IMG/VR virus record: IMGVR_UViG_2671180417_000010
Location: 1-17,035 of that record
Length of the DNA: 17,035 bases
Source: a virus
Lineage: Duplodnaviria; Heunggongvirae; Uroviricota; Caudoviricetes
Reading direction: 5' to 3' (one strand)
Each line of letters starts with the position of its first letter. Positions within the stretch are counted from its first letter, which is position 1. This document shows, piece by piece, positions 153 to 15,523 of the stretch. The position numbers and the translations under genes were made by a program. Under the pieces are notes generated by a model that ran no database searches, was not told where the DNA came from, and saw only the letters and a program-made list of their open reading frames with translations.

Positions 153-185
153 TGACTACACCAGTGACTACACCGTTCGGTGCAC
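153..185. repeat. Left copy of terminal direct repeat (TGACTACACC x2 followed by GTTCGGTGCAC); candidate att junction
   Basis: 153..185 TGACTACACCAGTGACTACACCGTTCGGTGCAC against 15491..15523 TGACTACACCAGTGACTACACCGATCGTTGCAC: 31 of 33 identical, same orientation, about 15.3 kb apart. Confidence 0.4.
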
Positions 186-190
186 TGTAT

Positions 191-208
191 GAAACAACGT
201 GGAACAAA
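191..208 (+). promoter_or_regulatory. Two 10-bp-phased GAACAA-type units (GAAACAACGTGGAACAA) next to the left terminal repeat
   Basis: Same unit as the arrays at 7651..7680, 13911..13930, 14143..14188 and 15535..15554. Confidence 0.4.
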
Positions 209-286
209 TAGACACAAGAAATATACAGGCGGATCATCTTTCCAGGGGGAAGCGCACCAATTCATGAGGGGCGTTAATGTCGATAT

Positions 287-546
287 GGGGATCCCCACCT
301 ACCGGAATTTTTTTCCGGTTAAACGTTAATCAGGCTGGTGGGCTTTACCTGTTCGGTAGGTGTTATGATTATCGTAATACCTTTCCCCCAATGGGGTAAA
401 AGCATCAACCGTAACGAAAGTCGTTATGGTTGCCACTGATACCCCAAATTTGGGTATCACGAGTAAGCCCCAAAATCTGGGTGTTACTCTTACTACCCAA
501 ACTACGGGTAGTTTCCGTAGTTTCATGGTCGAGTTGCAGATCTGCA
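287..546. repeat. Cluster of palindromes in the non-coding left end: GGGGATCCCC (287..296), hairpin ACCGGAA-T5-TTCCGGT (301..319), CCCCAATGGGG (385..396), ACCCCAAATTTGGGT (442..455), CCCAAAATCTGGG (468..481), CCCAAACTACGGG (496..508), TTGCAGATCTGCAA (533..546)
   Basis: Read directly. Four related CCCAAA-N-TTTGGG half-site pairs spaced about 26-57 bp apart. The overlapping ORFs (86..298, 326..556, 426..686) have non-protein-like composition. Confidence 0.45.
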
Positions 547-804
547 ACTCCCCCATTAACCACAGGCGAATTTCCGCCTTCGGTCATTCCTTAATCATCT
601 GCGTAATCATAATGATTATTCAGCAAGCGCAATTTTGCGCTTTGCTTAAAGTTCAGCGAGTTACCGCGCCGACTTCCTCAAATTGAGGTTTCCGAAAATA
701 TCAGCGGGTTAGCGATTAAGCTGACCATTAATTAAACTGCGAAAATGTCGTAGTTGTGAGGGGTGTAGCCAACCCATTTTTGGGCCGTCGGGAATATCAA
801 CCAG

Positions 805-1086
805 TTACCGCCGCAACCGCTCCGGCTTCTTCCAGTGGTACGTTATTTTCTCCTTCTCCCGATACATCTCCACGCGGCGACGGTAGGCCAGCAACTCAAG
901 AACTCTGGTTCGTATGTTGCGCATATCCACGCCATTAAGTTCTATACCATCACGGCGCATCACCTCAGCAACAACACGCGCATAGTTTTCGGCTGTCACG
1001 CTGTCCGGCAGCGTGGCCTGTTCGTCAGCCTGCTGGCTGATTCCGGCAACGCGGCGGATTAATCCCGTTATTTCGGCTTCTGTCAT
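805..1086 (-). CDS. Hypothetical protein (93 aa) immediately downstream of terL
   Basis: ATG at 1084..1086 preceded by GAGGT. Starts 14 nt after the terL stop. Protein-like charged/amphipathic composition. No recognisable motif. Confidence 0.45.
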   Translation of the reverse strand: MTEAEITGLIRRVAGISQQADEQATLPDSVTAENYARVVAEVMRRDGIELNGVDMRNIRTRVLELLAYRRRVEMYREKEKITYHWKKPERLRR

Positions 1087-1099
1087 GCTGCTGACCTCA

Positions 1100-13869: not shown

Positions 13870-13910
13870 TATTGCCCCCCCTTTCGTTTCTTAAAGAGTC
13901 ATCAGGTGTC

Positions 13911-13930
13911 TTATTGTGTCGTATTGTTCC
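13911..13930 (-). promoter_or_regulatory. Two 10-bp-phased GAACAA-type units (plus strand TTGTGTC / TTGTTCC) about 45-60 bp upstream of alpA
   Basis: Read directly. Inverted orientation relative to the arrays at 7651..7680 and 15535..15554. Confidence 0.35.
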
Positions 13931-14142
13931 CGCTAGAGTGATGAATGGCAAATATTGAGGATGTATGATTTACAGAAAATGAAACAGTAAGAATAAAATC
14001 TTTTAAATTCATGTTAATACAAAGGCATAAAATATTGTTTCATGCCTTTTTTCTCGCTCTTTAAAGAGTGATTCGCTAGTGTATAAAAAACCAGTGACAC
14101 ATTAAAAATCAGCCACTTATAAATCTGTATGCTTTTTCGCCT

Positions 14143-14188
14143 CTTGTTCGTGGTTGTTCCACATTGTTGCTCATTGTTGCACGTTGTA
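14143..14188 (-). promoter_or_regulatory. Array of 4-5 10-bp-phased GAACAA-type units (plus strand TTGTTCG TTGTTCC TTGTTGC TTGTTGC TTGT) in the int-alpA intergenic region
   Basis: Read directly. Its reverse complement shares 19 identical bp (GTGGAACAACCACGAACAA) with the array at 7661..7679. Confidence 0.5.
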
Positions 14189-14235
14189 TCTGTTCGCATA
14201 TACAGTATGCGCATACTGAAAAAACACGAAAAAAA

Positions 14236-15465
14236 TTATTTTCTTCTGGCTACTGGTAGCGTGGTTACGTTTTCATGTGTTCCCGCCAGTATCCCTAACC
14301 GCTCCGTCCACATATCCAGCGCATTGCGTTTAGCATCCAGATAACGGGAATGATTATAAACTCGCTGCATTCCTGGCATCTGGTGGCCTGTAAGCTGCTC
14401 CACGACATGCGGATCAACGCCTAAATCGTTCAGCATGGTTGTAAAGGTGCGCCGGATGTCATGCAGTGACCAGTGAGGATGATTAAGCCTCCTGTGCGCT
14501 AATCTTCCATACTGCGATACGCTGGCCTCCTGTTTCACTTCCCCCAGCAATAAGCCCGTGTGCCTGTTCTGCTCCACCAGCTGCGTGACGAACGGCAGGA
14601 TCGCTTCCGGTATGGGCCGGAATATTGCGACCTTCGTTTTGCTGTGCTCCTTCGGAACGGTCCATAGCATTTCCGTAAAATCCCACTCCCCGATCTCCGA
14701 TAACCTCAGTTCTACCGTTCTGGCTCCGAAGACAATCAGGAGGCGGATTAACGCGACGTAGTAAGGGGAGAATATTTTTTTGTCCAGTGCCTGCAATAAT
14801 TCGCCAAGTTCTTTGTTACTTAAGACACGTTCGCTTATATCCGGTTTTTTCCCAACGTCCGCCACGTTCAGATCGTCCAGAACGTTGCTGATTGCATAGC
14901 GCCGCCTACGGCAGAACTTAAGCGCCTGTTTGCACGCCTGTAGCACGAATCCGGCAGTAACAGGCGTTCGCTTTGCCACCTGGTCAAAACAGGCCAGCCA
15001 GTGCCGTAGCTCGCATTTATCCAGCGGCATAGCACCAATCTGCTGTATTACGTGATTATTAAGTCGCCTTTTCAGGGCGATATAATCCACGCGGTTTTCC
15101 TTTACGTAATACTCAAGCCAGTAGGTGAGCGCATCGCCAACCGTTACCGGCTTTAACGCTTCCTGTACGGTGTAATTAAGCTCATGACGTGGATTTTTCC
15201 CCTCTGCCAGCCATGCGCGACACTGGGCGGCTTTTTCCCTGGCTGATTTCAGGCTCAGATCAGGATAACTTCCCAGCTTAATGCGTTCGGGTCGTGTCTC
15301 CCTTCCCGTTCCGGCCCTGTATGTGAAATACCAGGTCAATTTCCCTGATGTTAAATATTTCACGCTCAGGTTTCCGCCATCACTATAAAACGTGTTTTTC
15401 TCCGCTGGCTTACCATGAAGTTTCCTTAGCAAGGTATCGCTCAGTTTGTTCATTGCTCTGCTCAC
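14236..15465 (-). CDS. int: Site-specific tyrosine integrase (P4 / CP4-type)
   Basis: 409 aa. The ORF-track start at 15465 is GTG with GGGGG 6 nt upstream; ATG alternative at 15453. Catalytic-domain motifs include WSLHDIRRTF (HxxR) and C-terminal GHQM...RVYNHSRYL (Tyr region). N-terminal region resembles an integrase arm-binding domain. Confidence 0.9.
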   Translation of the reverse strand: MSRAMNKLSDTLLRKLHGKPAEKNTFYSDGGNLSVKYLTSGKLTWYFTYRAGTGRETRPERIKLGSYPDLSLKSAREKAAQCRAWLAEGKNPRHELNYTVQEALKPVTVGDALTYWLEYYVKENRVDYIALKRRLNNHVIQQIGAMPLDKCELRHWLACFDQVAKRTPVTAGFVLQACKQALKFCRRRRYAISNVLDDLNVADVGKKPDISERVLSNKELGELLQALDKKIFSPYYVALIRLLIVFGARTVELRLSEIGEWDFTEMLWTVPKEHSKTKVAIFRPIPEAILPFVTQLVEQNRHTGLLLGEVKQEASVSQYGRLAHRRLNHPHWSLHDIRRTFTTMLNDLGVDPHVVEQLTGHQMPGMQRVYNHSRYLDAKRNALDMWTERLGILAGTHENVTTLPVARRK

Positions 15466-15490
15466 GTTTTACCCCCTCTTTACGAAAAAG

Positions 15491-15523
15491 TGACTACACC
15501 AGTGACTACACCGATCGTTGCAC
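15491..15523. repeat. Right copy of terminal direct repeat (TGACTACACC x2 + GATCGTTGCAC), 26 bp upstream of the int start; candidate att junction
   Basis: See 153..185; 31 of 33 identical. Confidence 0.4.

Follow-up and report, generated by a model that had tools for sequence, protein, structure and literature searches.

A probable capsid-forming phage-inducible chromosomal island of the EcCIEDL933 family, inserted in a lambdoid prophage gene

[quoted passage not shown] The island's own proteins build small T=4 capsids, and the helper supplies tail genes only; tail-less capsids are released and can join the tails of other phages, the adaptor and connector deciding which tails fit, and losing each gene of the packaging module abolishes or severely reduces transfer (10.1101/2022.09.08.507074; 10.1101/2025.02.11.637232). 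Induction by the helper phages HK106 and HK446 requires alpA (10.1101/2022.09.08.507074), and cf-PICI DNA has cohesive ends (10.1101/2025.02.11.637232). Here we describe a relative of this element in IMG/VR virus record IMGVR_UViG_2671180417_000010. The window, by which we mean the whole 17,035-nucleotide stretch of that record, holds at positions 79–15649 what we regard with high confidence as a 15,571-bp cf-PICI of the EcCIEDL933 family. A sequence-only reading, made from the letters without database searches, had already proposed a capsid-forming satellite; this is supported by the presence of 11 of 11 core components and by 94% DNA identity to the island of strain EDL933.

The window matches E. 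coli chromosomes at 94–97% identity over 80–83% of its length, and the island DNA is 94–99% identical to E. coli islands, including those of EDL933 and Z1323. The island of E. coli O157:H7 EDL933 lies between phoQ and roxA and is, by strain and size, the 15.4-kb EcCIEDL933. Gene order is the same in the two elements from int to the 93-amino-acid (aa) open reading frame (ORF) that follows TerL, with ~94% DNA identity over the common parts. Protein identity is 100% for AlpA and TerS, 99.5% for the capsid and portal proteins, 99.3% for the HNH endonuclease, 99% for the connector, 98.6% for TerL, 95.8% for the protease, 93.8% for the head-closure protein and 92% for the integrase: the proteins of the packaging module are thus 94–100% identical, with the exception of the 93-aa ORF, at 86%.

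Every substantial gene between ~800 and 15,470 lies on the minus strand. The core of the island, together with the origin and the conserved ORFs of the packaging module, is as follows.

805..1086, minus strand: 93-aa conserved ORF after TerL (phrog_1561, a family without assigned function; PHROG E 5e-55)
1100..2761, minus strand: TerL (PF03354 and PF20441)
2745..3101, minus strand: TerS, P27 / Terminase_4 type (PF05119, E 1e-23)
3102..3227, minus strand: probable cos region with G+C-rich GGGGTGGGGGGCG...CCCCGCCGGGC, flanked by the 60-aa ORF and TerS
3228..3406, minus strand: 60-aa conserved ORF (phrog_3173) between HNH and TerS, from PHROG and sequence comparison
3390..3830, minus strand: HNH endonuclease, packaging cofactor (PF01844)
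3830..4126, minus strand: gp6-like head–tail connector (PF05135)
4123..4461, minus strand: head-closure protein or head–tail adaptor, 112 aa (PF05521; PDB 2kz4, E 6e-68)
4458..5669, minus strand: portal protein (PF04860, E 9e-91)
5671..6228, minus strand: prohead serine protease, S78, HK97 type (PF04586, E 4e-46)
6283..7440, minus strand: HK97-fold major capsid protein, 385 aa (PF05065, E 2e-61)
8806..9079, both orientations: replication origin with 11 GGGACRAC iterons and A+T-rich spacers (iteron count)
9105..11249, minus strand: DUF927 primase/helicase-type replication initiator with a P-loop (PF06048, E 2e-48; phrog_1139 DNA primase, E 2e-171)
13681..13869, minus strand: AlpA excisionase/regulator (PF05930, E 5e-17)
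14236..15465, minus strand: tyrosine integrase (PF13356, Arm-DNA-bind_3, and PF00589, Phage_integrase)

Pfam thus confirms the co-oriented set that had been read from the letters: integrase, AlpA, the P-loop initiator (DUF927), capsid, protease, portal, head closure, connector, HNH, TerS and TerL. The sequence-only reading had made itself depend on profile hidden Markov model searches, and these support its capsid, portal and terminase assignments. All eight head and packaging components are present, intact and in canonical order, and with the integrase, regulator and primase they make up the 11 core components of a cf-PICI, which PMC10085698 would class as "Type A". Membership was judged by SatelliteFinder and Alqurainy/He criteria. 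The integrase, at one end of the island, is 100% identical to that of an island integrated in tqsA in strain Z1323, and the AlpA versions of EDL933 and Z1323 are 100% identical to the one here. The Walker A sequence SSAGKTT is visible in the translation of the DUF927 protein. The iteron origin beside it, also noticed earlier, is real: 11 GGGACRAC copies occur at 8806–9079 against 1.1 expected, and none of 200 shuffled sequences reached 11.

Capsid translation begins at ATG 7440 rather than GTG 7488, and that of the head-closure protein at 4461 rather than 4503. The capsid protein carries the cleavage motif STGVPAD; an SxGxxAD capsid motif has been described (10.1101/2025.02.11.637232). It matches PDB chain 9gyi_B over 385/385 residues (E 1e-255), and the four copies of the capsid chain in 9gyi would fit a T=4 asymmetric unit. 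Among solved capsids, the next-closest come from the Rhodobacter capsulatus gene transfer agent (6tb9 and 6tba, E 1e-46), whose portal is also matched by the portal protein here.

The borders of the island were placed by comparison with an uninterrupted prophage (locus L003) of E. coli O103:H2 strain 12009. Window positions 1–78 and 15639–17035 are contiguous in that prophage (11934–12011 and 12001–13397), where the empty site reads CCGTTATGGAATGCTGACATTGATTCACGG. The left junction of the island reads ...GGAATGCTGACAT / ACATAACTT and the right junction ...GATAAAATGCTGTTAT / TGATTCACGG. Given contiguous flanks and aligned junctions, the att cores are therefore 11 bp each, attL (AATGCTGACAT) at 68–78 and attR (AATGCTGTTAT) at 15639–15649, and the island measures 15,571 bp between them, within the ~10–18 kb size criterion for cf-PICIs. 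More than 15 further copies have the same island ends in tqsA and 2 more at a third site; in all of these attL is ...TTGCTGTTATATATAAC, attR is AATGCTGTTAT followed by the flank, and the common core is TGCTGTTAT. At the third chromosomal site (L015 and L017) the flank reads ...GGTGATGAGTTGCTGTTAT and adjoins a DUF3302 gene, with the same TGCTGTTAT core. A further criterion, from the Methods of Alqurainy, is a dedicated attachment site never occupied by prophages (10.1101/2022.09.08.507074).

The sequence-only reading had instead bounded the element by direct repeats about 15.3 kb apart. Such repeats exist (149–224 and 15487–15562; 76 nt, 76% identical) but they are internal: both lie inside the junctions and are kept in islands at other sites, and we rejected them as att sites. 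Within them GTGACTACACC, present twice per island end (152–174 and 15490–15512), is retained in islands with an identical integrase and has diverged in EDL933, where the integrase is 92% identical. The GTGACTACACC repeats are probably arm-type sites of the integrase. For annotation, the comparison supplies the real att cores of this integrase type, and warns that internal arm repeats can be taken for island borders. An excised attP circle of the island would read …GATAAAATGCTGTTATATATAAC….

The same comparison reveals the setting of this copy. The earlier reading had found no tail or lysis ORF in the 17 kb, which is correct for the window, but it missed the context: both flanks are lambdoid prophage DNA.

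1..78, minus strand: DUF968 gene from Met25 on, extending left of the window (100% match to L003 11934–12011)
15650..17035, minus strand: lambdoid prophage (99.6% identical to L003 12001–13397)
16169–16324, minus strand: hokD (Pfam HOK_GEF)
16319–16493, minus strand: sok RNA (Rfam sok, 114 bits)
right flank, minus strand: DUF551 gene (Pfam)

The right flank begins with the first 24 codons of DUF968 (15650–15721), followed by a 92-aa ORF, hokD and DUF551, while the DUF968 part at the left edge of the window translates as MSAFHNGRILVEPEPK..., that is, residues 25 onward. The island thus splits DUF968 after codon 24 (VRVLLRPVLVPELGLVIVKPGRES / MSAFHNG...), at a point between hokD and RusA/Q of the prophage; in strain 12009 the interrupted reading frame is whole. 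Left of the window come the remainder of DUF968, then RusA and a Q-type antiterminator, as seen in draft contig JASMUW010000065.1, which is 99.98% identical to the window. The hokD/sok pair is a type I toxin–antitoxin locus of the flanking prophage, and a weak IsrK-like match lies at 16079–16160.

This setting raises the question of whether the capsid and terminase genes are simply the head module of the surrounding lambdoid prophage, with tail and lysis genes outside the window. Both flanks are indeed prophage DNA, with RusA and Q next on the left, and in the L003 relative a holin, a lysozyme and a terminase lie a few kb beyond Q. That relative, however, encodes a separate HNH, TerS, TerL and capsid of its own at that place; the flanks of the island are contiguous in strain 12009, with only a short core shared and the DUF968 frame restored; and other strains carry the identical 15.6-kb unit, ending at the same points, in tqsA or at phoQ/roxA, between core genes. 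Precise junctions and an uninterrupted prophage allele speak against membership of the prophage, and the empty-site comparison refutes the idea, to which we assign a negligible probability. Tail or lysis genes contiguous with the module, which the sequence-only reading had taken as the mark of a full prophage, probably do exist just outside the window; they do not overturn the cf-PICI reading, because the insertion is discrete and the island lies between core genes elsewhere. The comparisons with published cf-PICIs and with an island-free genome, proposed in the same reading, thus gave both the kinship to EcCIEDL933 and the att cores.

Within the island itself, Pfam and PHROG scans found no tail, holin or lysis genes, and the components forbidden in a cf-PICI are absent. 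Of the island, 87% is taken up by assigned ORFs, RNAs or the origin, and the longest gap without assignment is 726 bp. Nor is there a holin-like hydrophobic segment: the maximum 19-residue Kyte–Doolittle mean is at most 1.9, against 3.1 for the hokD control. Among 50,697 records of a phage collection none covers more than 13% of the island at the megablast level, and the adaptor and connector are at most 54–62% identical to any phage protein (the connector at most 62% to any deposited phage). The low coverage and the low identity of these two proteins agree with the published low relatedness of cf-PICIs to phages.

An island with head genes and no tail genes could also be a decaying prophage that has lost its tail and lysis genes, rather than a dedicated satellite. 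Its structural genes all have phage homologues and one small ORF is frameshifted, as such a remnant might show. Against this, the gene set and order recur almost unchanged across very many assemblies (the exact HNH protein occurs in 26,651 blocks of an assembly collection and the 93-aa ORF in 664), the large ORFs are all intact and the att ends precise, and Pfam, PHROG and hydropathy scans of the island found no remnant of a phage repressor or of lysis or tail genes. The prototype is, moreover, experimentally mobile as a satellite. We therefore consider a prophage remnant very improbable. The 93-aa ORF and HNH are so widespread that exact-protein look-ups with them, meant to reach the prophage beyond Q, gave only tqsA and phoQ contexts.

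If the island behaves as a cf-PICI, its life cycle may be sketched from the experiments on the 94%-identical EcCIEDL933. It would stay integrated until a helper phage turned on alpA, whereupon AlpA and the integrase would excise it. The DUF927 primase/helicase would replicate the island from the GGGACRAC iteron origin, and the capsid protein, S78 protease and portal would form small T=4 heads of HK97 fold. TerS, TerL and HNH would cut the island's own cos, one island genome being packaged per head. The probable cos lies at 3102–3227, which adjoins HNH and TerS as in HNH-dependent cos phages, and this segment is nearly invariant among the window, Z1323 and EDL933. The head-closure protein and the gp6-like connector would then complete a tail-less capsid, which would become infective once joined to a phage-made tail.

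The usual site of this integrase type is tqsA, and the present copy occupies a look-alike secondary site in a prophage gene. Counted from the aligned sequences, the likeness of the prophage site to tqsA extends over ~28 bp on the left; the core is mismatched at two bases (GACAT versus GTTAT). The attL and attR of this copy differ at 2 positions within a 9-bp core that is identical at normal sites: attL has the prophage bases and attR the island bases, the pattern expected if a heteroduplex overlap segregates. Integrases of the lambda family need homology in the overlap. Given the mismatched core and this rule, excision from the prophage site is probably inefficient. The junction is also rare. 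All 5,426 complete E. coli genomes lack it, even though 3,629 of them have the target region; in the same set the left end of the island lies in tqsA in ~100 genomes. Two exact-pattern scans of a species-representative genome collection gave no match to the junction. It was recovered from at least two assemblies, the drafts GCA_037005465.1 and GCA_039620765.1, plus a few similar contigs. From these alignments and counts, the location in the prophage appears to be a rare secondary-site insertion by the island's integrase.

A second peculiarity accompanies the first. The 60-aa ORF between HNH and TerS is frameshifted by one lost G (GG to G, ~3339–3340), and this deletion occurs only in prophage-borne copies (the window and two copies from independent assemblies, L006 and L008), whereas 14 other copies keep GG. 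Because an ORF of the packaging module is frameshifted, this copy may be a stranded element that is starting to decay. The mismatched core and the lineage-specific frameshift together suggest what may become of a satellite after off-target integration.

It is also conceivable that the nesting is adaptive. The island would then be a functional cf-PICI in which induction of the prophage transcribes int and alpA by read-through and so fires the satellite, while the 15.6-kb insert delays Q and the late genes and makes the prophage genome oversized. The island has the orientation of the early-right operon of the prophage (DUF551, hokD, DUF968, RusA, Q) and lies upstream of both RusA and Q; between int and the 92-aa prophage ORF the predictions show no strong terminator. 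In other families, satellites integrated in prophages are reported (PMC10085698, PMC11389934). Were this so, a satellite would be controlling or disabling a potential helper from within, as reported for other satellite families; a literature search did not find such control for cf-PICIs. However, so common a target with so rarely recovered a junction, and a core mismatch plus a frameshift in exactly these copies, look like an accident followed by decay, and adaptive nesting seems to us unlikely. We favour the reading of a cf-PICI that integrated off target. As such it is a clean example of a prophage-embedded cf-PICI, a class that tools of the SatelliteFinder type reject when tail or holin genes are nearby; ~8% of cfPICIs have been noted with neighbouring phage genes.

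Several points weigh against parts of this account. The life cycle sketched for this copy is drawn by analogy with the prototype and is a prediction, as are its activity and its use of a helper. The cos region is probable, from its position beside HNH and TerS. A "hypothetical gene 1792" in the packaging module of EcCIEDL933 severely reduced transfer when lost (10.1101/2022.09.08.507074); the frameshifted 60-aa ORF may or may not be this gene, and the island might do without it. In attL a third change, T to C near position 80, is more than simple strand exchange accounts for, and excision is predicted to be poor on the assumption that both mismatched bases fall within the overlap.

Besides the core, the island carries accessory genes and an RNA cassette.

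7728..8000, minus strand: PerC-family regulator, 90 aa (PF06069, E 1e-37; PHROG "transcriptional activator" families)
8011..8421, minus strand: single-strand DNA-binding protein, SSB (PF00436)
8418..8768, minus strand: 116-aa ORF of a PHROG family without assigned function, in place of an 83-aa ORF of the EDL933 island
11246–11545, minus strand: DUF4222 protein (Pfam)
11551–11793, 11783–11974 and 11977–12159, minus strand: small conserved ORFs of 80, 63 and 61 aa (PHROG families without assigned function)
12152..12806, minus strand: cassette like immI of phage P1 (Rfam; Icd-like ORFs by homology), comprising the next five entries
12152–12322, minus strand: Icd-like ORF 2, 56 aa
12374–12461, minus strand: C4 antisense RNA (Rfam C4, 69.1 bits; gathering score 45)
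12487–12565, minus strand: IsrK-like terminator
12529–12578, minus strand: a1/b1 target hairpins (Rfam c4-a1b1, 46.8 bits; gathering score 46.7)
12609–12806, minus strand: Icd-like ORF 1
12832..13623: variable region downstream of alpA, with a 263-aa minus-strand ORF and an antisense 59-aa ORF
13001–13180, plus strand: antisense YlcI/YnfO-family ORF, 59 aa, overlapping the 263-aa ORF

The small accessory genes had been called uncharacterised. For the 93-, 116-, 80-, 63- and 61-aa ORFs this holds, their only matches being PHROG families of unknown function, but PerC, SSB, DUF4222 and the two Icd-like ORFs can be named. PADLOC returned no defence system among the small ORFs of the island. In the variable region the 263-aa ORF (12832–13623) is open on the minus strand, has no family match and an odd composition rich in Cys, Ser and Arg; substitutions show no codon-position periodicity in any frame for it or for the antisense ORF, and GC skew changes sign across the same interval.

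Three different replication modules (DUF927; D5_N with DUF5906; AAA_25) occur among otherwise near-identical islands (loci L013–L029), and next to each module sits a small ORF of its own. This amounts to a swapping of replication protein and origin, as a module, among islands.

The C4/Icd cassette is placed upstream of the replication genes. A gene-caller's 154-aa ORF at 12152–12616 was rejected, the C4 RNA, the a1/b1 targets and the 56-aa Icd-like ORF fitting the region instead. The insert 12190–12624 has no counterpart in EDL933 or Z1323, the C4 and a1/b1 elements were not detected in those two loci, and the C4 cassette is present in ~114 of the 5,426 E. coli genomes. By analogy with RNA control of the P1 immI or P4 CI style, the cassette probably represses the downstream replication operon, and its variable presence suggests that some cf-PICIs repress their replication through RNA.

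A second candidate regulatory sequence is the 14-mer ACAACGTGGAACAA, which occurs six times in the island with at most 2 mismatches, against 0.15 expected.

194–207: ACAACGTGGAACAA site near attL
7657–7670: ACAACGTGGAACAA site between the PerC terminator and the capsid gene
14154..14187 (14154 and 14174), minus strand: two ACAACGTGGAACAA-like copies between int and alpA
15532–15555 (15532 and 15542): two ACAACGTGGAACAA copies near attR
7441..7727, minus strand: putative control region of the packaging operon, with a terminator-like hairpin (7704–7721) after PerC, then ACAACGTGGAACAA
79..804: non-coding int-distal end of the island (P' arm), with GTGACTACACC twice, ACAACGTGGAACAA, palindromes and 48-bp repeats
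15466..15649: int-proximal arm, with GTGACTACACC twice, ACAACGTGGAACAA twice and the attR core AATGCTGTTAT

Both EDL933 and Z1323, with AlpA proteins 100% identical to the one here, have the 14-mer at the same four locations. Its sharing by the att arms, the region upstream of alpA and that upstream of the capsid operon makes it a lead worth following as a candidate AlpA operator, which would link excision to expression of the capsid operon; the layout of 7441–7727 likewise suggests a regulatory role. The int-distal end contains a run of imperfect palindromes at 392–559 (e.g. TGATACCCCAAATTTGGGTATCA) and 48-bp direct repeats at 635–714, and the end after the 93-aa ORF is rearranged in EDL933. 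Other cf-PICIs are said to carry immune systems at the position of 79–804; here the ORFs of this interval have no Pfam, PHROG or PADLOC match, and no defence-gene match was obtained.

How, then, does the island compare with described satellites? Relative to EcCIEDL933, which has its att site at phoQ/roxA, it has a core of the tqsA type and another integrase allele (92%). Replication specificity also differs: the DUF927 protein is 83% identical, the origin and adjacent ORF have been replaced, and SSB and PerC are ~80% identical. The C4 RNA, a second Icd cassette and the antisense YlcI ORF are extras of the present island, and this copy further differs in its frameshifted 60-aa ORF and its place inside a prophage.

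The tqsA island of Z1323HEC0393 (NZ_CP148357) has identical integrase, AlpA, TerL, TerS, portal, protease, capsid, 93-aa ORF and ends. In it and similar copies, which lie in tqsA, the TGCTGTTAT core is perfect and the 60-aa ORF intact; the C4 cassette is missing from Z1323, whose DUF927/origin allele is a different one. The tqsA-integrated cf-PICIs are annotated, and a literature search found no study of them.

Classical PICIs of E. coli (EcCICFT073, EcCIED1a) share the left half with integrase, AlpA and primase, a PerC-type accessory gene and induction through alpA. They are, however, without portal, connectors and TerL, and redirect the capsids and terminase of the helper; portal, adaptor, connector and TerL, all forbidden in that model, are present here. 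P4-like satellites and the immI region of P1/P7 offer further likenesses: a P4-type integrase, AlpA, a primase-type replication protein, Icd-like ORFs and an antisense RNA of the C4/CI family with a1/b1 targets. The layout of the cassette is that of P1 immI, and its RNA family includes the CI-type RNAs of P4. The antirepressor that P1 immI controls is absent from this island, and P4 uses capsid proteins of its helper P2, whereas this island encodes its own capsid module; no hijacking domain of Sid, Psu, Delta or Epsilon type, whether for capsid size or for transactivation, was found in the ORFs scanned with Pfam or PHROG.

Taken together, these comparisons leave no claim to novelty for the element, which belongs to a published and experimentally characterised family. 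The island is a further member of that cf-PICI family and a mosaic of known modules, and the one unusual feature of this copy is its location inside a gene of a lambda-like prophage.

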